In this document: positions 19,644 through 35,220 of the stretch, in pieces
Numbering within the stretch: the stretch's first letter is position 1
How the letters are laid out: each line of letters begins with the position of its first letter
Assembly (NCBI GenBank): GCA_014437165.1
Contig: GCA_014437165.1_4090.3
Reading direction: 5' to 3' (one strand)
Length of the DNA: 64,000 bases
Source: a phage
Made by a program: the position numbers and the translations under genes
Notes under the pieces: model-generated
Seen by the model: only the letters and a program-made list of their open reading frames with translations
Told to the model about the DNA's origin: nothing
Databases searched by the model: none

Positions 19644-20178
19644 AGGCTAAACCCCGTAATCATAGGTAGTCATAAGTAATCATATATAAACATTTATATG
19701 AGCACCGTAGAATCACAGAATGATTATATATGATTCAGTACTGATTAGTATAGACAAGATTGCTCAAGAATGCACGGAAATGTGTGTGAATGATTCAGTA
19801 CTGATATGCCACTAAGTAGGCAGAGGAAGTCTGCCGTACTTTGTAGTTTCCAAGCTCCTTTTCCATTTTCAAATTACATCAAATGTAATCAAAAGTAATC
19901 ACGCAATGATTAGTACTGAATTATTACTTTCACCTTAATTACAATTACCCTTTTACCCTTCGGGGTAAAATTCCATTACCCCTTGAGGCTCCAGCAAAAA
20001 GTTGGTTAGTACTCCATCCTAAATCTCGATCCTAAAAATTTTGGAGTACCTATGAAATAAAAGTTGGATCTTCGAAAGTTGAAATTTACGTTGGGACGTT
20101 TATGATTTGTGGGATATAATGATGTTTGTAGACGGGTAGTTCTCAAGAATATCAGTACTGAATGGTGAAAGAAAGTTA

Positions 20179-20206
20179 TTGACATTATGATTCAGTACTG
20201 TATAAT
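20179..20206 (+). promoter_or_regulatory. sigma70-type promoter TTGACA-16-TATAAT with no ORF downstream
   Basis: TTGACA 20179-20184, TATAAT 20201-20206; downstream ~200 nt lacks SD/ORF and ends at perfect hairpin CCACCAGCTTGTGCTGGTGG. Confidence 0.4.
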
Positions 20207-20565
20207 GTTCTACATAGGGTGATGAGTTGCTGCGAACAATTCATTTACTCTACCTCCTGTCGTGAGACAGTACAGAAAAGATAGTTCCTCCTGTGGTGGT
20301 ACATCTTTTTGAACCTCATATGAAAATCGTAATAACAGTACTGACATTAACAGAATGGTGTCAGTACTGATTTTAATCTAAAGCATTATGCCACCAGCTT
20401 GTGCTGGTGGATTCCCTCTAACAGTATTCAGTACTACATGATAGTCTTCATCCTCCTACAGTAACAGTGAGGGCTATTGTGGGAGTACTGAATACTCCCT
20501 TCTTAAAGATAGATCTATGGTATAGTACTGACGGATTTTGGGCGTAGTAACCCTAGGTTGAATTT

Positions 20566-20720
20566 AGACGTAGAGATGTCTAGACCTCCAGATGGCTGGA
20601 AGTAAAGATGGCTATCCCTCTAGGCGGCTGGATGGCTAGATTTCTAGATGGCTGTACTGCTAGACGTTTGGACGGCTAAACGGCTAGATGGTTACACGTC
20701 TGGATGTATAGACGGCTAAA
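20566..20720. repeat. iteron-like array of about 10 degenerate direct repeats (C)TAGAYGGCT
   Basis: AGATGGCT/GGATGGCT/AGACGGCT/GGACGGCT copies at ~10-16-bp spacing. Confidence 0.6.
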
Positions 20721-21419
20721 TCAAAATTTTTATTTTATTTTTTCCAATAGTTCCCCTACCGCGTGGGGATGGTTTCCCCGCAGTATCTGGAGTTAGATTT
20801 TTCTGAATCTGGAATCATTATCTAATAAACTGGGGGCAATGTCAACCGCCTGGATGAATAATTTTAAAAAATAATCTAGTACTGAATTTTAGATACAACT
20901 ATGCACCCGGTGGGCTAGAGTCTTTCTCGACTTGATGAAACTATTATACAGTACTGAAAAAATAAAGCAATACCCTAAACGCAAAAAGTTTTAATTAATT
21001 TGCTTGCCATCCTGGGGCGTACTATGATACTATTATTCAGTACTGAGAAAGTGCTATGACCTGCTAAGGTGCGGGAGTGTATCCTTTTTAAATTTACTGA
21101 ATTTTGGGCGTAATTCCGCACCCCCTGGGGTATCCGCTTTCTCGCGTCTATGTAGTAATTATACGCTTTTTTAGTACTGAGTCAATAGCTAAAAACAAAA
21201 TAATTGAAAATAATTTAACGCGTTTAAACGGCCCGTAAAGCCCTGGTTAGCTGGTGGCGGTGCAAATGTATAGCTTAGGTGTATTAATGCGTTAGAATGC
21301 GATTGAGGACGTTTTACGGGGTATAGTACTGAATCAGTACTGAAAGATTGTTCTCCCTGGATTGTTCCAGTACTCCTATATAGAAAGAAAACTATTTTAA
21401 AAGTATTTGTAGAAAGTAC

Positions 21420-21447
21420 TTGCAAAGTATTGGGAAAGGTGTAGAAT
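21420..21447 (+). promoter_or_regulatory. promoter TTGCAA-16-TAGAAT followed by 5'-UTR hairpin
   Basis: precedes ATG 21505; hairpin CGGGGGAGACGCTCCCG between -10 and SD. Confidence 0.5.
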
Positions 21448-21504
21448 GTTTTACATCGAGACGGGGGAGACGCTCCCGACTCACTTTTAAAAGAGATTAA
21501 AACG

Positions 21505-21867
21505 ATGGCTACTAAAATCAATACTATCATGCTTAACCTGGTTTCTTTCCGTGAAGAGATGAAAGATCTTCCCGCTGAGACTGTACGGATTCACATTGCA
21601 GCTTATCGGGAATTGATTGCAATGTTGCCGCTTAAGCGTGAACAGTACGCCGCTACTGCAATGCTGGATGCAATGATCCATAAGATGATCCAGACTGATT
21701 TAACGATGGCTTATCAGTACATGGGCGAAATGTTTGCAGTGTATAGCAAGCCAGTACCAGGAATGGAAAGTACAGAAGTATTGCACGGCTTAAACTTAAA
21801 ACAAGATGCATGGGATAATATGCCTCGTTTCCTGGTATGGGCTGACAGTGGCAAGATTTACGAATAA
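21505..21867 (+). CDS. hypothetical protein (120 aa)
   Basis: ORF with own promoter + hairpin + SD. Confidence 0.6.
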   Translation: MATKINTIMLNLVSFREEMKDLPAETVRIHIAAYRELIAMLPLKREQYAATAMLDAMIHKMIQTDLTMAYQYMGEMFAVYSKPVPGMESTEVLHGLNLKQDAWDNMPRFLVWADSGKIYE

Positions 21868-21881
21868 GTTTAATAAAGTAC

Positions 21882-21909
21882 TTGCAAACTAAGTTTAAAA
21901 GCGTATAAT
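21882..21909 (+). promoter_or_regulatory. promoter TTGCAA-16-TATAAT (PeSL-like cassette with hairpin 21922-21940 GTGGGGAATAGTTCCCCAC)
   Basis: consensus hexamers; 5' hairpin immediately after TACATCA start region; SD AAGAGGA. Confidence 0.65.
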
Positions 21910-21961
21910 ACTTTACATCAGGTGGGGAATAGTTCCCCACTATAATTAAGAGGATTTAAAA

Positions 21962-22201
21962 ATGGCTAAATCAAAAATGTTCTTAGGACACAAAAACAAA
22001 ACTCAATGGAATGTAAGCCTTTGGATTAATAACGACGAATCATTATACCGGTTGGCCCAGGACTTTATTGCCGCTAACACTAATCGTAATGATGCGGCCC
22101 GTCATATGATGCTATTTTTAGAACAGACTGGACAAGATAAAACACCGGACGGCTTTAAGTATAGCACTACTGCGATCCGTGCGGCGATGGTTGGAATGTA
22201 A
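21962..22201 (+). CDS. hypothetical protein (79 aa); paralog of 24362-24601
   Basis: GHKNKTxWNVSLWINNDESLYR…TPDGFKYSTTAIRAAMVGM shared with 24362 product. Confidence 0.7.
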   Translation: MAKSKMFLGHKNKTQWNVSLWINNDESLYRLAQDFIAANTNRNDAARHMMLFLEQTGQDKTPDGFKYSTTAIRAAMVGM

Positions 22202-22283
22202 GAGAATAGATTAAAAGTACTATTGCACGGTGATAGTACTTTATAATAGATTTCTTTTATACAACAACGATAGGGGTAACAGC

Positions 22284-22550
22284 ATGAATATTATATACTT
22301 TGCAACGCGTGAACTTGCTCGGATTGCCGCACGCCAGGACGGGGCGACGTTTAAAGATATGGGCGTACAATCTGAACGTGGTAAACGTTGGGCCGTAGTA
22401 AAGCAAAGTACAGCCCGATCAATTCAGTACTGGCTATCTGCTTTAAAGCGTCCTGATAGTGTATCGCGTCGCGTGGTAGAAATAAAGCACGACCGCAAGG
22501 GCAACCGCGTTACTGTGTACAGTACTAAAAAGATAGCAGTACTTGAATAA
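22284..22550 (+). CDS. hypothetical protein; paralog of 34763-35158 (…HDRKGNRVTVYS)
   Basis: ATG 22284 chosen (track start 22230 lies inside the promoter). Confidence 0.6.
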   Translation: MNIIYFATRELARIAARQDGATFKDMGVQSERGKRWAVVKQSTARSIQYWLSALKRPDSVSRRVVEIKHDRKGNRVTVYSTKKIAVLE

Positions 22551-22556
22551 AAGTAC

Positions 22557-22584
22557 TTGCAAAGTAAGTTAAAAGGCGTATAAT
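22557..22584 (+). promoter_or_regulatory. promoter TTGCAA-16-TATAAT + hairpin GGTGGGGAAGTATTCCCCACC (22596-22616)
   Basis: same cassette architecture. Confidence 0.65.
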
Positions 22585-22634
22585 ACTTTCTATCAGGTGG
22601 GGAAGTATTCCCCACCACATAAGAGGATTTAAAA

Positions 22635-22865
22635 ATGACTATCATGTATATGACCGAAGTTAAAACTGTAAAAGATACTACCACTGATAAAACTACTTAC
22701 TTACAGCGGATCTGTGGTGTATGGCAACGTATCAGTAAAGCAAAGTACTATAAATTAACATCATATGCCAATCGTTCGGATTCATTCAGTACTGAAATAA
22801 AAGGTAATAAAGTACACCAATACGGCACTTATTACTATTATAGCCTGGACGCGATTGCAGTCTAA
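22635..22865 (+). CDS. hypothetical protein (76 aa)
   Basis: SD AAGAGGA 8 nt upstream. Confidence 0.6.
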   Translation: MTIMYMTEVKTVKDTTTDKTTYLQRICGVWQRISKAKYYKLTSYANRSDSFSTEIKGNKVHQYGTYYYYSLDAIAV

Positions 22866-23291
22866 GCAGTTTTTGAAAATATTTACAATTGCCGGTATTG
22901 ACTTATTTTGTCAGTACTGGCATAATGTATCTATTGAAACGAACAATTTGGCCCACGGGGTGCGGGAGTGTATCTATAGAAAAAGTAGTTTAGTACAGTT
23001 ACAATTGTGCACCCGGTGGGTTAGCTGTTGTCATGGGGTATATTATACCAGTACTGGATAGTGCTGTCAATACCTTTTTACTATTCAGTACTTAAAACTA
23101 TTTTCAAAAAGTACTTGCAAACTATGTTTAAAGGCGTATAATGTTTTACATCAGGACGGGGAATGAATAAGTAACTCCCCGTTAAGTAGCCCAGGAGTAA
23201 GGCACACGAAAAACTCCCCTGATAAAATAGTTTGACAATTGTTTTTAAAAGCGTATAATACTTACATCAACTACTGAATGAGGGTTACAAA

Positions 23292-23903
23292 ATGAAAACT
23301 ATCACTACTACTACTTATGTTATGGCTTTTTCTGAATTGAACGCAGAACAACAAACGTCAGCTATCGAACTGGTTCGGGATCGGGAACGTTCAAGCGGTG
23401 ATGATTTCTTTTCTGAGTCAGTGATCGAGTACTATAAAGAAACAGTACTACCAGAATATGGAATTGATGACGCTGATTTGCAATTCAGTGGTTTTTGGTC
23501 GCAGGGTGACGGTGCATCAATCAGTACTGACCACGTTGACGCAGTGAAGTTTTTACGCAAGGTAAGAGCATTAACTAAGTATCGCTCAATCCGTCACCTG
23601 CTGAATGAAGATGATTTGGCGATGAGTGTAAAGCGTTCTCACTCCCACTACTCGCATGAGAACACTGTAAGCGGGTACATTGAATCGGCTTACACTGATT
23701 TAACCGCAAAACAAGAAACGTTAGTTAATGAGCTTGAGGAACTACTCACTGATACTATTCGTGAATTATCCCGCAAGTTGTACCGTGATTTAGAGAATGC
23801 ATATGAGGATCAATTCACTACTGAAAACATTACGGCACTGATTGAGGGTAACGAATATCAATTCAATGTTATTGATGGCGTAGTAGAATCAATCGAATAT
23901 TAA
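23292..23903 (+). CDS. hypothetical acidic protein (203 aa)
   Basis: SD GAGGG; preceded by tandem promoter/structured leader element 23147-23275. Confidence 0.65.
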   Translation: MKTITTTTYVMAFSELNAEQQTSAIELVRDRERSSGDDFFSESVIEYYKETVLPEYGIDDADLQFSGFWSQGDGASISTDHVDAVKFLRKVRALTKYRSIRHLLNEDDLAMSVKRSHSHYSHENTVSGYIESAYTDLTAKQETLVNELEELLTDTIRELSRKLYRDLENAYEDQFTTENITALIEGNEYQFNVIDGVVESIEY

Positions 23904-23915
23904 TTCAAAAAGTAC

Positions 23916-23943
23916 TTGCAAACTAAGTTTAAAAGCGTATAAT
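23916..23943 (+). promoter_or_regulatory. promoter TTGCAA-16-TATAAT + hairpin GAGGCGGGGAATGGTTCCCCGCTC
   Basis: cassette before 23997. Confidence 0.65.
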
Positions 23944-23996
23944 ACTTTATATCGAGGCGGGGAATGGTTCCCCGCTCACACTAAAAGGGCAACAAA

Positions 23997-24263
23997 ATGA
24001 AAACTTTAAATATCACAACTGCACATCAATTGGTTCGGGATGCAATGGATCATGTGCAAGATTTCTTCCCTGATGTAAGTGTCGTAACTTATGAAAAAGG
24101 TACTTGGACTTATTCAACAATTAATGGTTATGAGCCTGATTTTGATGACCTGGAAGAAATGGAATTTAATTTTGATCTGCTGAATGATGCCGCCCGTGAA
24201 GTTGAAAACGATGTTCAATACATTGATGGAGTAGTCGCACCTGATGCAGTAAAAGGATTATAA
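23997..24263 (+). CDS. hypothetical acidic protein (88 aa)
   Basis: cassette + SD. Confidence 0.6.
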   Translation: MKTLNITTAHQLVRDAMDHVQDFFPDVSVVTYEKGTWTYSTINGYEPDFDDLEEMEFNFDLLNDAAREVENDVQYIDGVVAPDAVKGL

Positions 24264-24361
24264 AATTTAAAAAGTACTTGCATTGTAGTTAGATTAACGT
24301 ATAATACTTTATATCGAGGCGGGAGAATGGTTCTCCCGCTCAATCAAACGAGGATTTAAAA

Positions 24362-24601
24362 ATGGCTAGTACTAAATCTTACAACGGTCACAAAAACAAA
24401 ACTCATTGGAATGTTTCATTGTGGATTAATAACGATGAGTCATTGTACCGGATCGCTCAACGTTGGATCGCACAAAGTAGTACTAAAGATTATGCTGCTG
24501 AATGTATGTACCGCGAATTAAAAGCAAACGGTACTACTACAACGCCGGACGGATTCAAGTATAGCACTACTGCGATCCGTGCTGCAATGGTTGGAATGTA
24601 A
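24362..24601 (+). CDS. hypothetical protein; paralog of 21962-22201
   Basis: shared motifs. Confidence 0.7.
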   Translation: MASTKSYNGHKNKTHWNVSLWINNDESLYRIAQRWIAQSSTKDYAAECMYRELKANGTTTTPDGFKYSTTAIRAAMVGM

Positions 24602-24620
24602 CATTCAGTACTGAATCAAT

Positions 24621-24643
24621 GGCGGGGATTGGTTCCCGCCTTT
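24621..24643 (+). terminator. hairpin GGCGGGGATTGGTTCCCGCC + TTT
   Basis: after stop of 24362-24601. Confidence 0.5.
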
Positions 24644-24658
24644 ACTGAGGATTATCTA

Positions 24659-24943
24659 ATGAGCAAAGTAATTAACTATACAGTACTAAGTAAATCATTA
24701 TCTATCAGCCATTGCACCGATGGTTATTGGCTTTATGATGAAACACGCGGCATGAATTTAGCTATGCAGGAGAAAACTACAGATGCGGCATATCTTAAAG
24801 CACTGGAATACTACCAGAAGCGATTAAAGGAAGTAGAAAACGATTATAATAACCTGAAAGCGAAAGTAGATCATTTCGTCGGTCAATTCGTTGACGATGA
24901 CGAGGACGGGCACTACTGCGACCGTTGCGGATCTTACAGTTAA
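24659..24943 (+). CDS. hypothetical protein (C-terminal CxxC: HYCDRCGSYS)
   Basis: ATG 24659 after SD GAGGA (track start 24629 sits in hairpin). Confidence 0.55.
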   Translation: MSKVINYTVLSKSLSISHCTDGYWLYDETRGMNLAMQEKTTDAAYLKALEYYQKRLKEVENDYNNLKAKVDHFVGQFVDDDEDGHYCDRCGSYS

Positions 24944-24960
24944 GTACTGAGGATTATCTA

Positions 24961-25164
24961 ATGAGTGATTTAATTGAACGTATCAAAGAGCTTGAAGAAA
25001 AAGAATTACAGTTAATCGGCTTACAGAATAAAGTATTCCATGATTTAGGTGGCTTTATTAATGCCTGGGATAGTGGCGATCCTGAAGCGTTACCTGCTAA
25101 CCGCCAGGCAATGATCAATGATGTGCGTGATGTCTTTGAGTATGTTTTAAAGCAATTAAATTAA
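24961..25164 (+). CDS. hypothetical protein (68 aa)
   Basis: same SD sequence ACTGAGGATTATCTAATGAG as the previous gene (duplicated junction). Confidence 0.55.
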   Translation: MSDLIERIKELEEKELQLIGLQNKVFHDLGGFINAWDSGDPEALPANRQAMINDVRDVFEYVLKQLN

Positions 25165-25250
25165 AAAAGTACTTGCAATTAGTTTTTAGTACTGTATAAT
25201 AGTTTACATAGAGGGGAGAAATGGTTCTCCCTGGTAATGAGGAAAATACA

Positions 25251-25472
25251 ATGGCTAATATCACTACTCTTTCTCAACTGGAAGCACTGGTTAAATCTAT
25301 GCGGGAACATGCCGACAATATCGGCGTAAAAGATCCAGCCGTTTGCTTCTGCGACGAAATGAATGATGATACACTGGTAATAGCAGAAGTACAAGATATT
25401 TCTAACTATTCATCGCGTTACACTGGCGGCGTAGCAAATAAAGGTGACTTCTGTTTATACCTTACTAAGTAA
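25251..25472 (+). CDS. hypothetical protein (73 aa)
   Basis: ATG 25251 after hairpin and SD. Confidence 0.55.
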   Translation: MANITTLSQLEALVKSMREHADNIGVKDPAVCFCDEMNDDTLVIAEVQDISNYSSRYTGGVANKGDFCLYLTK

Positions 25473-25719
25473 TACAGAGGGGATCAATTGGTCCCCTTTC
25501 TTTTTTCAGTACTGAATCATTTAATAGACGGATCTATGCACCCAGTGGGTTAGAGACTATCTCGTCTTTATGTAGTAATTATGCCAGTACTGGATGCAGT
25601 TGTCAACAATTATTTTTCAAATACTTTTATATTAAAGTACTTGCTATTAGTTTTTAAACGCGTATAATGTTTTACATCGAAAGGGGAAACGGTTCCCCTG
25701 GTAACTAAGGAATAAGAAA

Positions 25720-25956
25720 ATGGTCGAACAAATAAAATCAACGTCTGCGAATGTAACGGGAACAGTATCACACTTTATTGGTGATGAATCGCGGGGCGTT
25801 CCCTATTGTGCTGTACATGTAAACACTGATGGCAACTACTGGTTTACGGTTTACGGATCTTATTCATTTGGTCTGCCTGGACATCAAAAAATCCTGGATA
25901 AAGTACAGCCAACGGGTAAAAATATCACTGCTGAAATGTTTTATAAAAAATCATAA
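25720..25956 (+). CDS. hypothetical protein (78 aa)
   Basis: cassette + SD AAGGAA. Confidence 0.6.
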   Translation: MVEQIKSTSANVTGTVSHFIGDESRGVPYCAVHVNTDGNYWFTVYGSYSFGLPGHQKILDKVQPTGKNITAEMFYKKS

Positions 25957-26040
25957 AGTACTTGATAATAGTTTTTAGTACTGTATAATATTTTACATCG
26001 CAAGGGGTAGCGGTTCCCCCTGGTAACTAAGGATAATCAA

Positions 26041-26340
26041 ATGAAAGTTGCAATCATCGCCCTGGCTTTATCTGTTTCCTCTTTCGCTGTTAACGCATCG
26101 TTAGATGTGAGTAGTGATAAATTCATTCAGTGCACCGTAGCAATGACCAATGAAAGTACTGGCGAGATTGTTTTAAAGGATTTAGAGATCCAGCCAGAAG
26201 CATTTAAAAGCGGCCCGTTCCATGAAGAAGACGAAAAAGGTAGCACGACAATTTATTACGATGTAAGTACTAAGCGTGGATCGGTCACGGTTATGGATAC
26301 TGAGAAAGTAACGCACACCGGAGTAATTAACTGTTTATAA
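26041..26340 (+). CDS. small secreted/periplasmic protein with Sec-type signal peptide (MKVAIIALALSVSSFAVNA|S)
   Basis: N-terminal K + hydrophobic core + A-x-A-like cleavage motif. Confidence 0.65.
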   Translation: MKVAIIALALSVSSFAVNASLDVSSDKFIQCTVAMTNESTGEIVLKDLEIQPEAFKSGPFHEEDEKGSTTIYYDVSTKRGSVTVMDTEKVTHTGVINCL

Positions 26341-26357
26341 TATAGTACTGAATCACT

Positions 26358-26386
26358 AGCCCACCTTAAACAGTGGGCTTTTTTGT
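26358..26386 (+). terminator. intrinsic terminator AGCCCACC-TTAAACA-GTGGGCT + TTTTTTG
   Basis: classic hairpin + T-run; identical copy at 27093. Confidence 0.8.
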
Positions 26387-26588
26387 TTTTGTATTATCGT
26401 AGTACTGCATACTTTAAAAATAGTTTTAAAATAGTAGTTGACATTACCACAAAAAGGCGTAGAATGTATTACATCAAGACGGGGAGCACTAAGTAGACCG
26501 CCAGTAAGTCGAACGAAAAACTGGACACGTCGATAAAACTTTGATACACTAATAAACGTAAACTAAACTTTAATTGAGGATTTATAAA

Positions 26589-27071
26589 ATGGCTAATGTA
26601 AAATCATTCCTGAAAGCACTGATTTCAAACGATACTGTTATTGCTGCTGAATTGTTGGCTGACCTGGATAACGATACCATGAAAGCAGTACGCAACAATT
26701 TTAACATTGCGTACAGTGAAGCTAAAGAACTGCAAGCCAAAAAGGTAGCAGAACTGGAAGAACAGAAAAAAGCCCGTGAAGCCGAACTGCAAGCAACAAT
26801 CGAAAGTATCCAGGCGGCGGTGGCTGGATTGGATCTGGAAGTAGTTGTAGAAATGGCACATAAAGCCCTGGCGGTTAAGTATGGTGAAGATAAGCCAGAA
26901 TCTAAACCTAAAAAATGGATTCAAGAACGTGTTACTGTAGTACTTGATAACGGGGAAGAACATATGATTCCTGTACGCGGTAACTGCATTGCGGTAGTAC
27001 TGGACGCTATCAAAGAAAGCGGTATGACTCGCGAGGAATGGATCGAAGCTCATCGCAAAGTTGAAGCATAA
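26589..27071 (+). CDS. hypothetical coiled-coil protein (160 aa)
   Basis: ATG 26589 after SD GAGGA; Lys/Glu/Ala-rich heptad-like segment. Confidence 0.65.
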   Translation: MANVKSFLKALISNDTVIAAELLADLDNDTMKAVRNNFNIAYSEAKELQAKKVAELEEQKKAREAELQATIESIQAAVAGLDLEVVVEMAHKALAVKYGEDKPESKPKKWIQERVTVVLDNGEEHMIPVRGNCIAVVLDAIKESGMTREEWIEAHRKVEA

Positions 27072-27092
27072 CAATTAAAGTACTGAATCACT

Positions 27093-27120
27093 AGCCCACC
27101 TTAAACAGTGGGCTTTTTTG
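27093..27120 (+). terminator. intrinsic terminator (identical to 26358-26386)
   Basis: hairpin + T-run. Confidence 0.8.
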
Positions 27121-27356
27121 TGTCTGTAGTATTCCAGTCCACCAGCACCGCCTAGAATCGATTCTAACGCATTAAACTGATTATCTGATACATCGCCCTA
27201 GCTGGTGGCGTTAAGGTCGTTAGAATGCGATTGAGAGCGTTTAAAGTATTTTGCAAAAAGTAATAAAAAGTACTTGCACGATTAAGAGATTAGCGTATAA
27301 TGTTTTACATCGAGAGGGGGAAACGGTTCTCCTTCCAAATCAAAGGAATCAAAACA

Positions 27357-27584
27357 ATGGCTATTATCATTACTCGCGTATCTGGTACTACTGGCAACGA
27401 ACAAGTAGTTGCAGTCATTACTAACAAGGCAGGTGCGGAATTGCAAAATGCAATGAATACCTGGGCCGTTAATGAGTTCGGTCAGTGGGCAAGTGTAGCA
27501 TACATTGAAACCTATCAAGTGCCGTCGATTAGTTTAACTGATTTGGGCGTTGAGCGTATCCTTTGCCTGGATGAATTAAATTAA
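27357..27584 (+). CDS. hypothetical protein (75 aa)
   Basis: ATG 27357 after SD AAAGGAA. Confidence 0.55.
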   Translation: MAIIITRVSGTTGNEQVVAVITNKAGAELQNAMNTWAVNEFGQWASVAYIETYQVPSISLTDLGVERILCLDELN

Positions 27585-27671
27585 AAAAAGTACTTGCAAA
27601 GTAAATCGAATAAAGTATAATACATTACATCAAGGGGAGAAATGGTTCTCCCTGATAATGAGGAAACTAAA

Positions 27672-27884
27672 ATGGCTATCATTACTAAAATCAAAGTTAA
27701 CAAGACTATCGTTAAACTGGTAGAAGTGAAAGAAGGTTATAAAGTATCTTGGTGCGGTATGTATCGGACGTTCGCAGATATAGATGATGCGATCAATTAT
27801 TACAGTGACACGGTTAAAAACTTTGTTCGTGCTGATGTGGTTATGGCAGTGGCAACATATAAAGCAGCGAAAGAAAGTAAGTAA
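27672..27884 (+). CDS. hypothetical protein (70 aa)
   Basis: ATG 27672 after SD GAGGAAA. Confidence 0.55.
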   Translation: MAIITKIKVNKTIVKLVEVKEGYKVSWCGMYRTFADIDDAINYYSDTVKNFVRADVVMAVATYKAAKESK

Positions 27885-27895
27885 AAATATTATCA

Positions 27896-27925
27896 CAGTA
27901 CTATTGACATAGTTTGATAGTACTG
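27896..27925 (+). promoter_or_regulatory. promoter with operator-like palindrome CAGTACTAT-TGACA..TTG-ATAGTACTG spanning the -35 and spacer
   Basis: near-identical copies at 30405-30434 and 38799-38828. Confidence 0.55.
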
Positions 27926-27975
27926 GCATAATAGATTTTATCAAGACGACACATATTAATTTAAGGAATACTAAA

Positions 27976-28299
27976 ATGGCTAAAACTATCATCAACACCG
28001 TTTCCCTGGCTGCAATCCATGCAATCAATGTTGACGGTAAACGTTGGACTGATTCATATGGCAATACTTATCATTCTTGTCATGTAAGCGTTGAACTGGA
28101 TAACGGCTTGAATGATCTGGCGGTTGAATCATTTACTTATGGCTATGAGGATGCATATCAACAAACGGCGGTATCACTCTTAAAGGAATCAGTAGACGGG
28201 CTTGATACTGTTGAAACCTCCCTCTATCGTTTGTGCAATGATCTTAATATCCCGTTGCATTGTACTGTACAGAATGTTAAACGCAAAAAAGATCTTTAA
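27976..28299 (+). CDS. hypothetical protein; paralog of 34344-34667
   Basis: shared …RWTDxxGNTYHSCxVS…ETFTYGY…VKRKKD. Confidence 0.65.
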   Translation: MAKTIINTVSLAAIHAINVDGKRWTDSYGNTYHSCHVSVELDNGLNDLAVESFTYGYEDAYQQTAVSLLKESVDGLDTVETSLYRLCNDLNIPLHCTVQNVKRKKDL

Positions 28300-28379
28300 T
28301 TAGCTTTACTTTATGCAGATACTTTGATATAGTGTCTGCATAGGAGAAAGAAATTAAATCAACTTAAGAGGATAGTAAA

Positions 28380-28649
28380 ATGAAAAATATCAGTACTTTA
28401 ATCGATGCAGGTACACATGTTCGTCGGTCTATGGTTGCAACCAGTTCTACAAAACAAGTACCAAGCGGTTATCTTGTATTTGTGCACGATGGAAAACTCC
28501 TGGAACGTTCAATCAATTTTGATGTTAAAAACAATTGCCGTTTTATTATCTTTCGCCGTGAACAATATAAAATTGATTTGCCAGCGAAGCCCATTAGCGG
28601 GGCGTACAACGTGCAATCATTGTTTGAGCGTCAACCATACACCTATTGA
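28380..28649 (+). CDS. hypothetical protein (89 aa)
   Basis: SD AAGAGGA. Confidence 0.55.
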   Translation: MKNISTLIDAGTHVRRSMVATSSTKQVPSGYLVFVHDGKLLERSINFDVKNNCRFIIFRREQYKIDLPAKPISGAYNVQSLFERQPYTY

Positions 28650-28700
28650 TCAAATCATCGTCAGTGGTCGATTTAGGCCGCTTATATTGGGGATTATACC

Positions 28701-29069
28701 ATGAACGTTAATCAAGTACTGAATGAGATCGAAAGCATCATTAAACCGATGAAGCGTACTGATGCTATGTTAACACCGGAAGAATGCCGCCTTTATGAGC
28801 GTTACAGCGTCGAACAAGTCCAGGCAATGGCTAGTATCCTTCCGGTTAGTAGTACTGCTAAAGGTGGCCCAGGTTTAACCGTACAGGATAAAATCGATCT
28901 CCTTAAGCTCAATGGCTATGTAGTTGATGTCGATAAAGAAAAAGTAATGGTATATGATAGTAGTATTGAGCAAGACTATTATAACTATTGCATGATTGAA
29001 AATGATCCTATTGATTCTATCATTGAAAATATGGTTAACAAAGCATTAAAAGATTTAGATTTAGTTTGA
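28701..29069 (+). CDS. hypothetical protein (122 aa)
   Basis: ORF with ATG start. Confidence 0.55.
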   Translation: MNVNQVLNEIESIIKPMKRTDAMLTPEECRLYERYSVEQVQAMASILPVSSTAKGGPGLTVQDKIDLLKLNGYVVDVDKEKVMVYDSSIEQDYYNYCMIENDPIDSIIENMVNKALKDLDLV

Positions 29070-29143
29070 CAGTACTGTAAAAAGGCGTATAATGTTTTAC
29101 ATAGAGGGGGGAAATGGTTCTCCCCAATAACAGGAGATACAAA

Positions 29144-29296
29144 ATGAAACAATACAACGCTCGGTTTGATGTTACTATCGGTAACGGCAAAGGTCAATTC
29201 TCTTTCAGTACTCGACGCAGTTATACAGAAAACTTCCTGCGTAATTGTGCACTGACCGCCGCACAAATTAAACATTACTTTCAGGCTAAAAAATGA
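29144..29296 (+). CDS. hypothetical small protein (50 aa)
   Basis: ATG 29144 after SD CAGGAGA. Confidence 0.5.
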   Translation: MKQYNARFDVTIGNGKGQFSFSTRRSYTENFLRNCALTAAQIKHYFQAKK

Positions 29297-29382
29297 AATC
29301 ATTAGCTTATTACAGTTCGGCCCTGGTCGGTGCATTGATCGCGGCGTTGTTAGTAACCTATCTATTCTTTATGGTGATTTAA
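29293..29382 (+). CDS. hydrophobic micro-protein (29 aa, single TM: MKSLAYYSSALVGALIAALLVTYLFFMVI)
   Basis: ATGA overlap with previous stop; below track cutoff. Confidence 0.4.
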   Translation: MKSLAYYSSALVGALIAALLVTYLFFMVI

Positions 29383-29517
29383 ATGAATCCTAACGGTATA
29401 GTTTACAGTACTCCTAAAACTAAAGCAGATAAAGCTAAAGCACGTAAAGCGAAAGTACAGGAATACATCAAGCAAGGCATGACACGAAAGGCCGCAGTAC
29501 TTAAAGCTAAAAAATAA
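29383..29517 (+). CDS. small basic protein (44 aa, Lys/Ala-rich)
   Basis: ATG immediately after previous stop. Confidence 0.4.
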   Translation: MNPNGIVYSTPKTKADKAKARKAKVQEYIKQGMTRKAAVLKAKK

Positions 29518-29742
29518 ATGAAAAAAGTGGTTGACTTCGGTCAGCCATTTTGTTATTATATAATCATTGAGAGATAGCTCACTAGCCCACAGGGTGCAGG
29601 AGTGTATCTATTGTATAATGTTTGAGTACTGAAAACTATTTTAAAGTATTTGATAAAAAGTACTTGCAAACTATCTCAATAAGCGTATAATGTTTTACAT
29701 CGAAAGGGGAAACGGTTTCCCCTAGTAATAAGGAAACGAATC

Positions 29743-30084
29743 ATGACTATCTCAATTGCTCAATCTAACTTTGAAAACGAAATCATCGCCCAGGCACTGC
29801 GTTTAAATGATGGTCGGGCCGAAATCAATTACGGTTTCAATTCAGGCGGTTGTGAAAACTATCAGTACTTTGTAACGGCTGATGGCTGTGTCCTGGGCAT
29901 CAATACAGTTATTGTAAACATTCAGAAAATTAATTTCAATGATCCAGACGATAGCCAGTTTTACATTGTAGGCGTAGACGTGAATTATGAGGATGATTCA
30001 CTAACTGATGATCACACTGGCGAGAAGTTAGAAAGTGCATACGGTGAAGATGATTATCAGTCCGGTCCAGAAGATTTCGAATAA
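29743..30084 (+). CDS. hypothetical acidic protein (113 aa)
   Basis: cassette + SD AAGGAAA. Confidence 0.6.
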   Translation: MTISIAQSNFENEIIAQALRLNDGRAEINYGFNSGGCENYQYFVTADGCVLGINTVIVNIQKINFNDPDDSQFYIVGVDVNYEDDSLTDDHTGEKLESAYGEDDYQSGPEDFE

Positions 30085-30179
30085 TATAAAAAAAATAGTT
30101 TGACAATAGATTATAGTACTGTATAATAAGTTACATGAAGGGGAGAAATGATTCTCCCCACTAACAGAGAGAAAACAAA

Positions 30180-30392
30180 ATGGCTAATATCTGCACTGTA
30201 CTGAAAAATGCAAAACAAGTTTTATTTTCTGATCACGATCATTTAAACAAGGATATTACTGGCGTTCGGAATATCAAAGATGTAAAAAGTGTTATGGGTA
30301 TCTATTGCAATATGAAACGTGTTGGAACGTTCGGCGATAAAGTACTATACCAGGCAGGGGATTACAATTTTACACTGACTATTATTAACTAA
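30180..30392 (+). CDS. hypothetical protein (70 aa)
   Basis: cassette + SD. Confidence 0.55.
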   Translation: MANICTVLKNAKQVLFSDHDHLNKDITGVRNIKDVKSVMGIYCNMKRVGTFGDKVLYQAGDYNFTLTIIN

Positions 30393-30404
30393 AAAATATT
30401 ATCA

Positions 30405-30434
30405 CAGTACTATTGACACTGATTGATAGTACTG
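30405..30434 (+). promoter_or_regulatory. promoter with operator-like palindrome (copy 2)
   Basis: CAGTACTATTGACACTGATTGATAGTACTG then GCATAATA. Confidence 0.55.
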
Positions 30435-30475
30435 GCATAATAACTTTTATCAACTACACTACTAAGGAATTAAAA

Positions 30476-30655
30476 ATGGCTATCATCGCAAAAACTGAAA
30501 TCATCGGCCTGGATTCTATCATCATGTCGTTTGAAGATCAAAAAGGTATGTATGTAGTTTCCTATGGTGATTATGTTCGGGAGTATGAAACGGTAGACGA
30601 AGCCTTTGAAAGTTACATTCGCCAGGTGAATAAAGCATACGACGATTACCGCTAA
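30476..30655 (+). CDS. hypothetical protein (59 aa)
   Basis: ATG 30476 after SD AAGGAA. Confidence 0.5.
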   Translation: MAIIAKTEIIGLDSIIMSFEDQKGMYVVSYGDYVREYETVDEAFESYIRQVNKAYDDYR

Positions 30656-30754
30656 AATATATTACCAGTACTATTAAAGATATTGACAACGTTTGATAGT
30701 ACTGTATAATAAGTTTTATAAACAGTAGTTAACTTAACCTAAGAGAGAAACAAA

Positions 30755-30898
30755 ATGATCGCACTGGATTCATTCATCGACGCAGTACTGGCAAAAACTG
30801 GCGAGGATCTTACAGCAGAACAATACGCAATGATCGAGCAATGCCAGCAAGACGGTAAATCGGTGAAAGATACTGTTAAGATTATCCGCAAGATGTAA
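30755..30898 (+). CDS. hypothetical small protein (47 aa)
   Basis: SD AGAGAGAAA; followed by terminator 30905-30933. Confidence 0.45.
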   Translation: MIALDSFIDAVLAKTGEDLTAEQYAMIEQCQQDGKSVKDTVKIIRKM

Positions 30899-30904
30899 GA
30901 TTAT

Positions 30905-30933
30905 AGCCCACTGGTTAACGCTGGTGGGCTTTA
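30905..30933 (+). terminator. hairpin AGCCCACTGG..CTGGTGGGCT + TTTAATT
   Basis: stem-loop after stop. Confidence 0.5.
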
Positions 30934-31003
30934 ATTCATTACCCTATACAATGCCAGTACTAAACCGTTTATCTCGTTAGAATGCGTTACAGGACGTTTA
31001 ACA

Positions 31004-31201
31004 ATGATTAGCATGAAATCAGTACAAAAACAAATAGAAACATTATCAAAAATTAAACGTAAACAGTACTCCTTAGAATATACAATCAATGGTAACTATC
31101 ATCTAATGAAAGAGAATAATTTTATAGTCATTGATGAATCATTGCAAATCATTAGTATAGTACTGAAAGCATTAATCAATGACAGAAAAAAATTAAAATA
31201 A
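31004..31201 (+). CDS. hypothetical protein (65 aa)
   Basis: ORF with ATG start. Confidence 0.45.
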   Translation: MISMKSVQKQIETLSKIKRKQYSLEYTINGNYHLMKENNFIVIDESLQIISIVLKALINDRKKLK

Positions 31202-31532
31202 ACTATTGACAATATCATCAAGTACTGGCATAATACTTACATCAAGACGAGAACGTCACTAACCCATAGGGTGCACAAATGTAACTGTATAATATTGATC
31301 AAAAAATGATCTGATCAATACTTGATCAATTTGCGTAAAGTAGTATAATTCTATGCAGTTGGTTAGACGAAAGGTTATGATTAGTAGTGCAAGTGTATAA
31401 AAATTTTCATGGTGTATCGTTTCGCACATATGGGGATGAATATGTGGTATCATGTGGATTGGAAAAAGTAAGAACAAGTAATATTATTGTCGCATTACAG
31501 TACTATAGTATTTTTATAATGAGGTTAAAATA

Positions 31533-31790
31533 ATGGCTGTAGGATTCGCGAAAGATGGGGCCGAACAAGACGAGATTAACGCAGTGATTCAGGCCGCCGT
31601 TAACCACGCTAGAAAGCAAATTAACGCACAAATAGAATCACTGATACATTGCCTCGACTGCGGCGATATAATCCCTGAGAATCGACGCCAGGCCGTTAAG
31701 GGATGTAAGTACTGCATAACTTGCCAGGAGGATCATGATAGTACTTTTAAACGTCCCCCGCGTAATTGTTGGCATAGATCTATGAGATAA
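31533..31790 (+). CDS. DksA/TraR-family C4 zinc-finger protein
   Basis: C-x2-C-G-x2-I-P-x2-R-R-x-A…C-x2-C-Q pattern (CLDCGDIIPENRRQAVKGCKYCITCQ). Confidence 0.7.
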   Translation: MAVGFAKDGAEQDEINAVIQAAVNHARKQINAQIESLIHCLDCGDIIPENRRQAVKGCKYCITCQEDHDSTFKRPPRNCWHRSMR

Positions 31791-31853
31791 AAAGTATTGA
31801 CAGTACTGAAAGATAGTGTATAATATTTTATATCTTAACTGAGGATTGAAATC

Positions 31854-32210
31854 ATGGGAATACAACATATCACGCGTACTACTGACAATGGCGAGATCAC
31901 TGGCTATCAAGTACAGGGCAAAGTAGCACAATTGCAGTACTGGTTTGTTAAACGTGGAATCATTGCACCGGATCTTGATTATGACCGTGTAGCGTTTATT
32001 GATTCTCTTTATGTTGATCCTGATAGTCGGGGCAATGGTGAAGGTAACGAATTAATGAATGCCTTTATTGATGCCGCCGATGATTCAGATTGTATCATTT
32101 TAGAATGCGATACGGGAGAAGATAACGCCTTTAATCTTAAAGAATGGTACGAAGGTTTCGGATTCGAGGTACTGATCGATAGTGAATATCCTATCATGAT
32201 TTTATCATAG
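31854..32210 (+). CDS. probable small GNAT-fold acetyltransferase-like protein
   Basis: motif-A-like V.P..RG.G.G..L segment (YVDPDSRGNGEGNELMNAF). Confidence 0.45.
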   Translation: MGIQHITRTTDNGEITGYQVQGKVAQLQYWFVKRGIIAPDLDYDRVAFIDSLYVDPDSRGNGEGNELMNAFIDAADDSDCIILECDTGEDNAFNLKEWYEGFGFEVLIDSEYPIMILS

Positions 32211-32288
32211 TACTTGCATTTAGTTTTCAGTACTGTTATAGTACTTACATCAAGGGGAAACATCTTCCCCTACTAAGAGGAAATAAAA

Positions 32289-32477
32289 ATGGAAAACTTA
32301 TCAAGTATTTTAGTACAAGATGATTTCGGTAATCCTGGAAGTGCTATCATTGTTCGGGGTAATAAAGCAACGTTTGTTATTGCTGGTGGACCTGTACAGC
32401 GTAGCATTAAAAATAATGCTGTTACCATTAATAATGTACGCTATCGCTTAGATAAAGAATTGATTCATAAACTTTAA
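32289..32477 (+). CDS. hypothetical protein (62 aa)
   Basis: cassette + SD GAGGAAA. Confidence 0.55.
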   Translation: MENLSSILVQDDFGNPGSAIIVRGNKATFVIAGGPVQRSIKNNAVTINNVRYRLDKELIHKL

Positions 32478-32561
32478 AAAGTATTTGACAATAGATTATA
32501 GTACTGTATAATAAGTTACATGAAGGGGAGAAATGATTCTCCCCACTAAGAGGAAAGAAAA

Positions 32562-32774
32562 ATGCAAGGTCAACTAATCGTTCGTAAATGGTCTGATACT
32601 AACGAAAAACCGTGGGATGTACAATACATCGGACCGGATGGGGTATCACGTTATCAGCCTGGCGTAACGCATAGTACTGAGCAATTTGCCAACGCTCACC
32701 GCGAACGCCTGTTAGAATCCATGAAACAGGGATTCTGTGAAAAATTCATTCAAGATCATTGGCTGAAAGATTAA
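32562..32774 (+). CDS. hypothetical protein (70 aa)
   Basis: cassette + SD. Confidence 0.55.
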   Translation: MQGQLIVRKWSDTNEKPWDVQYIGPDGVSRYQPGVTHSTEQFANAHRERLLESMKQGFCEKFIQDHWLKD

Positions 32775-32791
32775 TATAAGGAGTACAGCTT

Positions 32792-32884
32792 ATGCAAATG
32801 AATCCGATGATTATTGTTTTAGCTGTACTTATGATCATTCATGCAATAGTAGAAGTATTAACGCAATCAGGAGTAATAAAATGA
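32792..32884 (+). CDS. hydrophobic micro-protein (30 aa, single TM)
   Basis: SD AAGGAG; MQMNPMIIVLAVLMIIHAIVEVL…. Confidence 0.4.
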   Translation: MQMNPMIIVLAVLMIIHAIVEVLTQSGVIK

Positions 32885-33054
32885 TCCAAGTAGAATTATC
32901 AGTACTGAAAGATCTGTTTTATCGGTTAGGTACTAATGGCGAGTATCCTAAAAGTGATACCGCAAAACTTTTTGTATCACTCGACTTATGGCAACGCGAA
33001 CAATTAGTAATGTCCTGGCGTAAAGGTAAAGAAGATAGCGAGGTGAAAGCATGA
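32881..33054 (+). CDS. hypothetical small protein (57 aa)
   Basis: ATGA coupling. Confidence 0.4.
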   Translation: MIQVELSVLKDLFYRLGTNGEYPKSDTAKLFVSLDLWQREQLVMSWRKGKEDSEVKA

Positions 33055-33200
33055 AAGAATTCTTATTCGAAGTAGTGTTTCAAGGTGTCGGTAGCAACCA
33101 ACTGATTCGCTCAAGTGGTTACAATGTTAACCAGGCATGGAATAACATTAAACAAATGTACCCGAACGCTATCACCTATCGCAACCCGAAACAAGTTTAA
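33051..33200 (+). CDS. hypothetical small protein (49 aa)
   Basis: ATGA coupling; followed by terminator/repeat element. Confidence 0.4.
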   Translation: MKEFLFEVVFQGVGSNQLIRSSGYNVNQAWNNIKQMYPNAITYRNPKQV

Positions 33201-33514
33201 AAATAATTGAAAAAGGGATTGACTCCGGTCAGTCCCTTTGCTATTATATACGCATAGAAACAAATCAGCCCACAGGGTGCATAAATGTATCTATTGTTTG
33301 CTGGTGGCTAGTACTGAAAACTATTTTTAAAAAGTACTTGCATTGTACTTAGAATCAAGTATAATATTTTACATCAGGACGGGGAACGAAACAAGTAACC
33401 CCGTTAAGTAGTCCAGGAGTAAGACATAAGAAAACCTCCCCTGATAAAATAGTTTGACAATAGAAAGTAAACGAGTATAATACTTACATCAACCACTGAT
33501 AAGGAAACATTAAA

Positions 33515-33790
33515 ATGCGGATTCTACTGACAGCTAACGAAATCGAACAAGTACTGACTACTAACCTGGAAGACTGGAAACGTGAAGCAGATATCCAGGC
33601 GGTTCAATGGCTTAACGATAAGTTAACGCCGGATGACTTAAGCAAGATTGTAGATCCTCAATTCTACGAAGATATTCACGACACCGCGTTAAGCGTCGAG
33701 GATGTACTTGATAAGCACTACATTGATATTGATTTGCAGGTTTACGGTCGTAAAAACTTTATCACTATTCACGACATTTACAATAATTAA
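33515..33790 (+). CDS. hypothetical acidic protein (91 aa)
   Basis: preceded by structured leader repeat 33371-33490. Confidence 0.6.
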   Translation: MRILLTANEIEQVLTTNLEDWKREADIQAVQWLNDKLTPDDLSKIVDPQFYEDIHDTALSVEDVLDKHYIDIDLQVYGRKNFITIHDIYNN

Positions 33791-33851
33791 GTATTGACAA
33801 AGTATCTTAGTACTGTATAATAGTTTACATCTTAATTAAAAAGGAAACATC

Positions 33852-33986
33852 ATGAAAGCGAACAAAGCAGCAAAGAAACAAACCAATCCCCTGGCTGGCT
33901 GGAAGTTAGATTTATCCGATGAAGTAGTTTGCACAAATAAGAATGTAGTTGAAGCTGAAAAGAAATTACGAAAAGAAAACAAATAA
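33852..33986 (+). CDS. hypothetical small basic protein (44 aa)
   Basis: promoter + SD AAGGAAA. Confidence 0.4.
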   Translation: MKANKAAKKQTNPLAGWKLDLSDEVVCTNKNVVEAEKKLRKENK

Positions 33987-34071
33987 GTATTGACAAAGTA
34001 TCTTAGTACTGTATAATAGTTTACATCAAGGGGGGAATGGTTCCCCTCCTAACAAAGAGAGAGAAATAAAA

Positions 34072-34254
34072 ATGGCTAAGTGCACTATCTGCAAGAAAGA
34101 AATAGTATTAGTTCCAAGTGCCCGTGAACGTGCCGCTCGGTTCGGTGGCAAAGCGTCAGACTATACAAAAATGTTTACTACCCATGCAGCTTGCCAGGTA
34201 GCAAAACGTTCACAAGAAAGCGTAGAATTAATGCGTAAACTTTCCAAAAAATAA
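34072..34254 (+). CDS. hypothetical protein (60 aa)
   Basis: cassette + SD. Confidence 0.5.
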   Translation: MAKCTICKKEIVLVPSARERAARFGGKASDYTKMFTTHAACQVAKRSQESVELMRKLSKK

Positions 34255-34343
34255 GTATTGACAAAGTATCTTAGTACTGTATAATAGTTTACATCAAGCG
34301 AGGGGAATGGTTCCCCTCCTAACTAAAAGAGAGAGAAATAAAA

Positions 34344-34667
34344 ATGGCTATGATCCTTACCCAGAAAGTAGAACTGAAAATTGTAACCTCCTTTGACATT
34401 AAAGTTAATCGCTGGACTGATCGGAACGGTAACACTTACCACTCTTGCTACGTGTCCGCGTTAATTGGCGACCGCTGGGAAGACTTGGGACATGAAACCT
34501 TTACTTACGGTTACGGTACACAAGGAGAATACACGGGCTTGGAGATCATTAAAGAAACCGTTATAGGTTTCAACCCGAAAGAAAAAGTTATTCACCGCAT
34601 CGAAAAAGAGATTAACAAAGAAATAACAGTTCGCTACTACGATGTAAAACGTAAGAAAGACATGTAA
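34344..34667 (+). CDS. hypothetical protein; paralog of 27976-28299
   Basis: shared motifs. Confidence 0.65.
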   Translation: MAMILTQKVELKIVTSFDIKVNRWTDRNGNTYHSCYVSALIGDRWEDLGHETFTYGYGTQGEYTGLEIIKETVIGFNPKEKVIHRIEKEINKEITVRYYDVKRKKDM

Positions 34668-35158: not shown

Positions 35159-35180
35159 TAACTTGCAGTACTAACAACAC

Positions 35181-35205: not shown

Positions 35206-35220
35206 ATAGGATAAACTAAA

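Follow-up and report, generated by a model that had tools for sequence, protein, structure and literature searches.

A long array of met-box-like repeats at the terminal-repeat boundary of a jumbo coliphage and of other exact-ended phages

Which protein reads a dense run of short direct repeats in the non-coding DNA of a phage? We address this question for a 64,000-nucleotide stretch of phage DNA (the window; contig GCA_014437165.1_4090.3 of NCBI GenBank assembly GCA_014437165.1), in which an earlier note had described about ten degenerate copies of a direct repeat near 20.6 kb, at 9-16-bp spacing, and had likened them to initiator-binding iterons at a replication origin or to terminase-binding sites at pac. 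We find that the repeats form a single array in 8-bp phase that matches the operator of the Escherichia coli repressor MetJ, that the array lies within the long direct repeat at the ends of the virion DNA, and that similar arrays recur in three phage families. Based on these data, we propose that host MetJ is the probable reader of the array and weigh this proposal against its alternatives.

An array in 8-bp phase that matches the met box

The direct repeats at 20566-20717 are 19 contiguous 8-bp units on the + strand, all in a single register, with the consensus AGAYGKCT and a G-rich polarity on that strand. Octamers 1-7, counted from 20566, read AGACGTAG AGATGTCT AGACCTCC AGATGGCT GGAAGTAA AGATGGCT ATCCCTCT; octamers 8-13 read AGGCGGCT GGATGGCT AGATTTCT AGATGGCT GTACTGCT AGACGTTT; and octamers 14-19, which end at 20717, read GGACGGCT AAACGGCT AGATGGTT ACACGTCT GGATGTAT AGACGGCT. 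Instead of about ten copies there are 19 contiguous units, and instead of a 9-16-bp spacing every start-to-start distance is a multiple of 8. The presence of a direct-repeat array far beyond chance is confirmed: the motif RGAYGGCT has 12 matches in the window, where 2.7 are expected, and 6 of these fall inside 20590-20717. The segment is also richer in GC than its surroundings, as had been noted (0.50 in the array, 0.37 in each flank). The units are too degenerate for Tandem Repeats Finder to report the array, and no open reading frame (ORF) of at least 40 amino acids overlaps it. The folding of the region as single-stranded DNA is unremarkable, with a z of -2.6 that is explained by the palindromic nature of the boxes.

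The array unit matches the E. coli met box, for which the consensus is AGACGTCT. In met operators each box is bound by one ribbon-helix-helix (RHH) dimer of MetJ, and binding is cooperative and needs the corepressor S-adenosylmethionine (SAM). To score the array we took the half-metbox weight matrix and its thresholds from Augustus & Spicer 2011 (PMC3228920), by which a box passes with at least one quarter of the consensus score and a site consists of at least two adjacent in-register boxes with a total of at least the consensus 12.58 bits. With this matrix, 16 of the 19 array boxes pass, for a sum of 116.2 bits and a mean of 6.1 bits per box. The next-best 19-box in-phase sum in the window is -108 bits, no other 19-box in-phase stretch has more than 4 passing boxes, and just 1.4% of the 8-mers in the window pass. 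The published site criteria divide the array into three adjacent sites of 4, 4 and 7 boxes (25.7, 25.9 and 55.8 bits), all in one register, and call just two sites elsewhere in the window, of 2 boxes each, at 41425 and 56781. As a control, the matrix recovers the metJ/metB and metF operators from 6 kb of E. coli K-12 and nothing else; the metJ/metB operator has four boxes, AGAAGTTT AGATGTCC AGATGTAT TGACGTCC, that total 31.2 bits, and the four boxes of the metF operator total 24.9 bits.

The likeness extends to the details of the unit. Among the 40,320 permutations of its columns only 2 score as well as the observed order, and therefore the array resembles this particular operator and not just any 8-bp repeat. 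Across 234 boxes from 15 phages, base frequencies in the left half-site follow the MetJ profile with r = 0.97, minor bases included (G at position 1, A or T at position 2, C at position 3 and T at position 4). For the right half-site of the same boxes r falls to 0.87, since position 6 has G as often as T. Like the two E. coli operators scored, the array is built of 8-bp units that follow each other head to tail without a spacer, joined by T-A steps, has the same positional base preferences and has a similar mean score per box (6.1 bits versus 6.2-7.8). It differs from them in having 19 boxes (8-28 in other phages) instead of 4, in lying in a phage terminal repeat and neither at a methionine gene nor over the promoter of one, and in having G at position 6 in about half of its boxes; natural met operators generally have 2-5 boxes. 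The array thus combines a matrix-matching unit with at least two adjacent in-register boxes above the site threshold, and the host carries metJ (in E. coli K-12). The impression that this is a protein-binding direct-repeat array holds up.

Position in the terminal repeats of three phage families

The 2-kb region around the array is 90-94% identical to the Asteriusvirus jumbo coliphages UB, 121Q, PBECO4 and G17 and, as judged from this identity, the window is from a 121Q-like Asteriusvirus jumbo phage. Several GenBank records of Asteriusvirus hold both copies of a ~21-kb direct terminal repeat, and for the jumbo coliphage fEgEco12 the termini have been confirmed by experiment. The earlier note had suggested mapping the genome ends, and a physical end can indeed be located: the right end of the G17 record and the left end of the vB_Ec-M-J record, which are independent of each other, coincide at 19815 (AGTAGGCAGAGG...), so that the array starts 751 bp inside the genome end. 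The left end of G17 corresponds to 40911 of the window. The vB_Ec-M-J record carries a terminal-repeat annotation. In G17 an offset of 350,149 bp between the two copies defines a repeat of 1-20668, and the array lies at 19771-19898 of it. Since the array is inside the direct terminal repeat, it is present in two copies per virion DNA. No credible ORFs are found in the ~1.5 kb in which it lies: on one side the small + strand genes end at 19541, and on the other the first annotated gene of the terminal repeat is at 21505. The terminal-repeat genes downstream of the array all point inward on the + strand.

Within Asteriusvirus the array varies from 12 to 24 boxes (SHEFM2K, 12; G17, 16; vB_Ec-M-J, 18; the window, 19; EJP2, 24), and since these differences are in whole boxes the phase is kept. 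The window array is identical, box for box, to that in the IMG/VR copy of 121Q, and CMSTMSU has two 7-box runs with a 1-bp slip between them. We also compared the region by blastn to jumbo phages of other genera, namely Mimasvirus CBB, GAP32 and XbC2, Eneladusvirus Serratia BF and Yen9-04, and the Erwinia pEa_SNUABM phages. The array and a box that follows it, CCATTAGYTCCCCTTCCGCG, align in these genomes, whereas the rest of the ~1.5-kb leader does not. For records whose first base is the physical end, the array coordinates are 685-804 in CBB, 648-775 in XbC2 and 673-800 in Serratia BF; in these three phages and in Asteriusvirus, 650-770 bp separate the array from the start of the record or the boundary of the terminal repeat. 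The earlier note would have given up its reading for want of conservation in relatives and of any signal near 20.6 kb; the repeats are kept both among the Asteriusviruses and across jumbo-phage genera. At the corresponding place, other Rak2-like jumbo phages have arrays of 8-28 boxes.

Arrays are also carried by T5-like phages (Demerecviridae) that infect Providencia, Vibrio and Aeromonas. All 28 boxes of Aeromonas phage AhSzq-1 pass (221 bits), Vibrio phage Pontus has 17 boxes and PVo5 has 8. In Providencia phage PR1, nine near-consensus boxes (AGCCGTCT AAACGTCT GGACGTCT and so on; 88.5 bits) at 9620-9691 lie inside the annotated terminal repeat 1-10461 and abut CTCTGCGC. The array is immediately 5' of a CC(C)TGCGC box and of GTGCAAATCCGACA-type repeats in PR1, Pontus and AhSzq-1. 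In both G17 and PR1 it forms an untranslated repeat cluster within the last ~1 kb of a long terminal repeat, as in the T5-type injection-stop region. When the T5-like loci are compared (in locus coordinates, PR1 2997-3076, Pontus 2500-2650, AhSzq-1 3962-4215 and T5 9540-9760), the array resembles an insertion, with the conserved motif CATTCGCATTC on one side and, on the other, the CC(C)TGCGC box at which the major nick of T5 is found, and T5 has AT-rich DRE repeats where its relatives have the met-box array. In PVo5, copies of TTATCCACA, a DnaA box, come right after the array.

A third family is represented by the autographivirus PGT2, a T7-like coliphage whose 260-bp terminal repeat includes 9 boxes, at 38-109. 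Its array and those of the CBB-type jumbo phages have in common an 18-nt string, GACGTTTAGACGGCTAAA. Among uncultivated viral contigs, the IMG/VR contig IMGVR_UViG_3300031658_004036 has 38 near-perfect AGATGTCY boxes (357 bits; locus coordinates 7257-7560), and two further IMG/VR contigs have 13 and 8 copies of GGATGGCT (locus coordinates 8201-8304 and 18-81, respectively); some of the near-perfect IMG/VR arrays are at contig ends. No comparable array was found in 72,556 PLSDB plasmids or in 5,426 complete E. coli genomes, and for this reason an origin of the element as a plasmid centromere or from a prophage was rejected. The element appears to move between unrelated phages.

Elements and genes around the array

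The features of the region are collected in Table 1. A T-rich spacer also lies 3' of the array in CBB, GAP32, XbC2, Serratia BF and Yen9-04, and CCATTAGYTCCCCTTCCGCG is the counterpart in these five phages of the GC-rich box that follows. Judged by eye, the element at 20744..20783 may be a counterpart of the CC(C)TGCGC nick box of the T5 family. The - strand promoter pattern that faces the array is not conserved in CBB-type phages. Within 19400-21600 there are no DnaA boxes, and Rfam gave no match at a permissive E-value. We considered a type I-E CRISPR repeat at 20749-20783 (AGTTCCCCTACCGCGTGGGGATGGTTTCCCCGCAG, which resembles GTTCCCC...GGGGAT) and rejected it, as Rfam was without a match at E <= 1; only CCATTAGYTCCCCTWCCGCG of this sequence is kept in other genera.

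Table 1. Features of the array region and of the terminal repeat, in window coordinates
Feature	Position	Strand	Basis
Direct terminal repeat of virion DNA	19815..40911	.	Ends of the G17 and vB_Ec-M-J records
Perfect sigma-70 promoter pattern (TTGACA, 16 nt, TATAAT) facing the array, CAGTACTG palindrome in spacer	20179..20206	+	12/12 hexamer matches, pattern only
Hairpin with 14-bp stem, arms with CAGTACTG, followed by T-run (terminator-like), between + strand promoter and array	20336..20369	+	Sequence
Second hairpin, equivalent to annotated G17 terminator	~20391-20411		Coordinates inferred by offset
Met-box-like array, 19 units	20566..20717	+	MetJ matrix, 8-bp phasing
26-nt A/T-only tract AAATCAAAATTTTTATTTTATTTTTT, directly after last box	20718..20743	.	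Read from sequence
Conserved GC-rich box CCAATAGTTCCCCTACCGCG	20744-20763	+	Alignment to other jumbo-phage genera
Overlapping short hairpins (CCCC..GGGG, GGGGA..TCCCC) after GC-rich box	20744..20783 (element as a whole)	+	Sequence
Sigma-70-like promoter pattern (TTGACA, 17 nt, GATAAT) facing the array	20817..20845	-	11/12 hexamer matches, pattern only

The palindrome CAGTACTG occurs at 52 sites in the window, against 0.76 expected, and is dense in 19736-40630, that is, in the terminal repeat (for example, at 20193-20200, 20336-20343, 20362-20369, 20949-20956 and 21038-21045). It is often directly 5' of a -10-like hexamer on either strand, as in TTCAGTACTGTATAAT at 20191-20206 and its reverse complement at 20943-20958, and it may be an operator or promoter element of early genes. 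In Aeromonas phage AhSzq-1 the array is followed by repeats that contain AGTACT; the CBB, XbC2 and XaC1 leaders also have AGTACT motifs.

At the physical end itself, 19815-19835 begins AGTAGGCAGAGGAAGTCTGCC and has a hairpin with a 6-bp stem (GGCAGA..TCTGCC) at the very terminus; CBB and XbC2 have another terminus that is conserved between them, TATCYGTTCCTGAAGTC. The cumulative GC skew of the window has its minimum at ~19.3-20.0 kb, with + strand genes on both sides. Across 16000-20000 the GC skew is negative and the AT skew strongly positive over the small + strand genes at 16-19.5 kb, and the GC skew becomes positive at the terminal-repeat boundary, where the direction of transcription is unchanged. 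The flip therefore marks the junction of the unique region and the terminal repeat, not a strand switch.

Two gene clusters lie outside the terminal repeat. At 18392-19541, just beyond the boundary, back-to-back + strand ORFs of ~60-77 amino acids correspond to hypothetical proteins in G17 (locus coordinates 2039-6042) and 121Q and look like a tandem gene family. At 4346-15962 on the - strand, ten consecutive head-to-tail ORFs of 245-443 amino acids may be a tandem array of paralogues; in the corresponding - strand cluster of G17, the annotation of one gene notes a weak similarity to the 'putative DNA condensation protein' of 121Q. Within the terminal repeat, the ORFs at 31854-32210 and 36022-36663 gave one GNAT acetyltransferase match (E = 4e-9) and one weak, sub-threshold protein-kinase-like match. 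In fEgEco12, 487 of 670 genes (~70%) are without an assigned function.

Host MetJ and other candidate readers of the boxes

MetJ homologues are confined to five gammaproteobacterial orders, the Enterobacterales, Pasteurellales, Vibrionales, Aeromonadales and Alteromonadales (PMC3228920). The ~100 array-bearing phage records have hosts in MetJ-bearing orders (Escherichia, Salmonella, Erwinia, Serratia, Pectobacterium, Cronobacter, Yersinia, Klebsiella, Providencia, Vibrio and Aeromonas), with Xanthomonas phage XbC2 as the sole exception. The phages themselves have no MetJ homologue in a tblastn search of 50,697 phage records with E. coli MetJ, which returned only bacterial or contaminant matches. 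A Pfam search of the 20 largest terminal-repeat ORFs, which covers 64 kb of a genome of ~350 kb, found no RHH, Rep/initiator, terminase, A1/A2, met or SAM-related domain. We know of no DNA-binding or packaging protein common to jumbo myoviruses, Demerecviridae and Autographiviridae, the packaging proteins of which are, to our knowledge, unrelated. Since three phage families carry the element and no common DNA-binding protein is known to us, a host protein is the simplest common reader. From the match of the boxes and the range of the hosts we consider it somewhat probable that host MetJ binds the array; our reservations are due to the XbC2 exception and to the polarity of the boxes, in which the G at position 6 is not mirrored at position 3.

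Based on these data, we propose, with a probability of roughly 0.55, that the array is a very long operator for host MetJ that acts as a SAM-dependent block or marker at the terminal-repeat boundary. The sequence match, the phasing, the position, the conservation and the distribution of the array are observed; the binding is predicted and the role is speculative. Approximately 16-19 MetJ dimers would coat ~150 bp of phage DNA as a cooperative, SAM-dependent filament, and this filament would form a nucleoprotein block or marker at the boundary, as a positional counterpart of the injection-stop (iss) and nick region of T5-like phages. It might gate transcription or replication across the boundary as a roadblock, or it might affect DNA entry or end processing. 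We favor a boundary marker because it is the only reading that makes use of the positional conservation. Any explanation has to account for the length of the array, for its place at the terminal-repeat boundary in three families and at the nick/iss locus in T5 relatives, and for its being dispensable in T5 and XaC1.

The comparison with T5 has two sides. Like Repeat Region 3/iss in the left terminal repeat of T5, the array is untranslated and repeat-rich and lies no more than 0.5-1 kb from the end of a long direct repeat; the T5 annotation places iss at 9140-10149 of a terminal repeat of 1-10219. Unlike T5 iss, the jumbo-phage locus is without DnaA boxes, has TCCCCTACCGCG (20751-20763), which is loosely similar, instead of the nick box CCCTGCGC, has CAGTACTG and not DRD as its nearby repeat, and has its array and box inverted relative to the nearest end. 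The T5 iss is part of a two-step DNA transfer that is not known for Asteriusvirus. In the sections consulted, the Davison preprint describes DnaA boxes and DRE and DRD repeats in T5-like iss regions, with no mention of met boxes. A function in the iss region has previously been proposed for clusters of DnaA boxes, which are sites for a host protein.

Several observations weigh against a MetJ operator that marks the boundary. The array is not at a met gene nor within ~75 bp of a start codon, as a met operator would be, and ~790 bp separate it from the start of the first annotated gene downstream. At position 6 of the boxes G is about as frequent as T and the mirror change at position 3 is rare, a polarity that a purely palindromic reader does not predict. 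XbC2 has a 16-box array although Xanthomonadales are without MetJ; this phage is 79% identical to Cronobacter phage GAP32 over 47% of its genome and was tested on Xanthomonas strains only (PMC11273794). No met-box array was found in T5 itself, and the array is therefore dispensable in that lineage. The array and its downstream box have opposite orientations to the nearest end in jumbo and in T5-like phages. Lastly, a protein on DNA that has already entered the cell is not obviously a stop to the entry of more, and thus the link to the injection stop is one of position. In favor of the proposal, on the other hand, is a natural contrast to XbC2: another jumbo phage isolated on the same Xanthomonas host, XaC1 (OR258281), has no array in its first 36 kb, which span its 32-kb terminal repeat. 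XaC1 belongs to the same clade, is more divergent and has a similar non-coding leader.

Could a protein of the phage read the boxes instead? RHH proteins of the Arc/MetJ/ParG/omega type bind arrays with 7-8-bp periods, and an RHH protein of this type or a packaging or end-processing factor might use the array as a centromere-like or terminase-assembly site near the first-packaged end. The constant distance of the array from the end in several genera, its location within the terminal repeat in three families, the polarity of the boxes, which suggests a directional reader, and the retention of the array by XbC2 on a host without MetJ are all consistent with this, and IHF at lambda cosB is a precedent for a host-assisted terminase site. 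Known RHH-coated arrays include the omega heptads of pSM19035 and, with 4-bp spacers, the ParG tetramer boxes of parH in TP228. They resemble the phage array in having contiguous repeats with a 7-8-bp period, on which RHH dimers form a protein helix around the DNA, and differ from it in being plasmid centromeres or operators with other sequences and plasmid-encoded readers. The SRL and SRR repeats of T7 are reportedly short degenerate direct repeats that flank the terminal repeat, as heptamers of a different sequence at variable spacing. They are like the array in lying beside or inside the terminal repeat of an exact-ended phage, and PGT2 is a T7-like carrier of the array. No host repressor is known to be implicated in the T7 repeats. 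We nevertheless consider a phage-encoded reader unlikely: the boxes reproduce the MetJ profile down to its minor bases, an agreement that would be surprising for the sites of an unrelated protein, the carriers are in three families without a known common small DNA-binding or packaging protein, T5 is without the array that its relatives PR1, Pontus and AhSzq-1 have, the 20 largest terminal-repeat ORFs, in 64 kb of ~350 kb, include no RHH domain, no such array was found in the 72,556 plasmids, and the cut site is 751 bp away. The constant distance to the end speaks for a pac site, but in the form given by the earlier note it has little support, given exact-ended phages, a cut 751 bp off, boxes in three families and their absence from T5. 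A slightly less likely alternative accepts MetJ as the reader, with the same sequence evidence for its predicted binding, and makes the array a sponge: by titrating host MetJ it would relieve the repression of the met regulon and of metK, and more methionine and SAM would become available for methylation and for making phage proteins. In number of boxes the phage arrays exceed the two 4-box E. coli operators scored by a factor of 4-7, their place in the terminal repeat gives a double dose, replication would multiply them further, and the IMG/VR contig with 38 near-perfect boxes looks like selection for capacity. Yet a decoy needs no fixed position, whereas jumbo phages keep the array 650-770 bp from the boundary and T5-like phages keep it next to the nick box, and genes of methionine or SAM metabolism were not seen among the 20 ORFs. 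T5-type phages are described in published abstracts as destroying host DNA early, which would make it pointless to derepress host genes.

The remaining explanations dispense with both MetJ and a packaging protein. If the repeats were iterons, as the earlier note had also suggested, they would bind a replication initiator and the adjoining A/T-only tract would unwind; the 26-nt tract that abuts the array and the cumulative GC-skew minimum at ~19.3-20.0 kb between + strand genes are what such an origin might look like. The claim does not stand in this form, and an origin is very unlikely here, given that the units are contiguous 8-bp boxes, unlike iterons of 17-22 bp in helical phase, that there is no DnaA box in 19400-21600 and no initiator-like or Rep-like domain in the 20 largest terminal-repeat ORFs, that the skew flips at the terminal-repeat boundary at 19815 and not at the array, and that an array is also found in the 260-bp terminal repeat of a T7-like phage. 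In T5-like phages the array is at the iss locus, while the Davison preprint places the T5 origins mid-genome. Replication slippage in a non-coding leader could also leave a functionless minisatellite, and copy number does vary by whole units among close relatives while some of the near-perfect tandem copies in IMG/VR look like recent slippage. This is the least likely explanation, close to negligible: despite their degeneracy the units stay in phase, genera whose flanks no longer align have still kept the array, it recurs at terminal-repeat boundaries in three phage families, and just 2 of 40,320 column permutations match this specific host operator as well as the observed order does.

A bolder extension of the proposed MetJ operator, which we offer as a doubtful but specific idea, is that at least three unrelated families of exact-ended phages acquired a mobile super-array of MetJ operators. 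At the terminal-repeat boundary the SAM-gated filament would then be a metabolic lock or timer on the viral DNA, by which the SAM status of the host would control DNA entry, transcription of early genes or the processing of concatemer ends. In the T5 relatives that carry the array it could also supply the long-sought protein part of the injection stop.

The open literature that we searched held nothing relevant that links MetJ or met boxes to phages, and neither there nor in the papers on these phages is a conserved array of 8-28 operator boxes for a metabolic repressor described at a terminal-repeat boundary. Phages borrow host DNA-binding proteins such as IHF, DnaA and LexA at their control sites. 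Host-factor sites in phage control regions are thus already known; what appears to be new here is a conserved super-array of putative operators for a metabolic repressor. Such arrays can be found with a simple published matrix. If MetJ binds, it would provide a concrete host factor for the poorly understood end repeats of T5-like and jumbo genomes, including the injection-stop locus, and would tie phage DNA transactions to the cellular level of SAM. It would also predict a genetic handle, in the form of metJ hosts and array deletions, for the jumbo coliphages.

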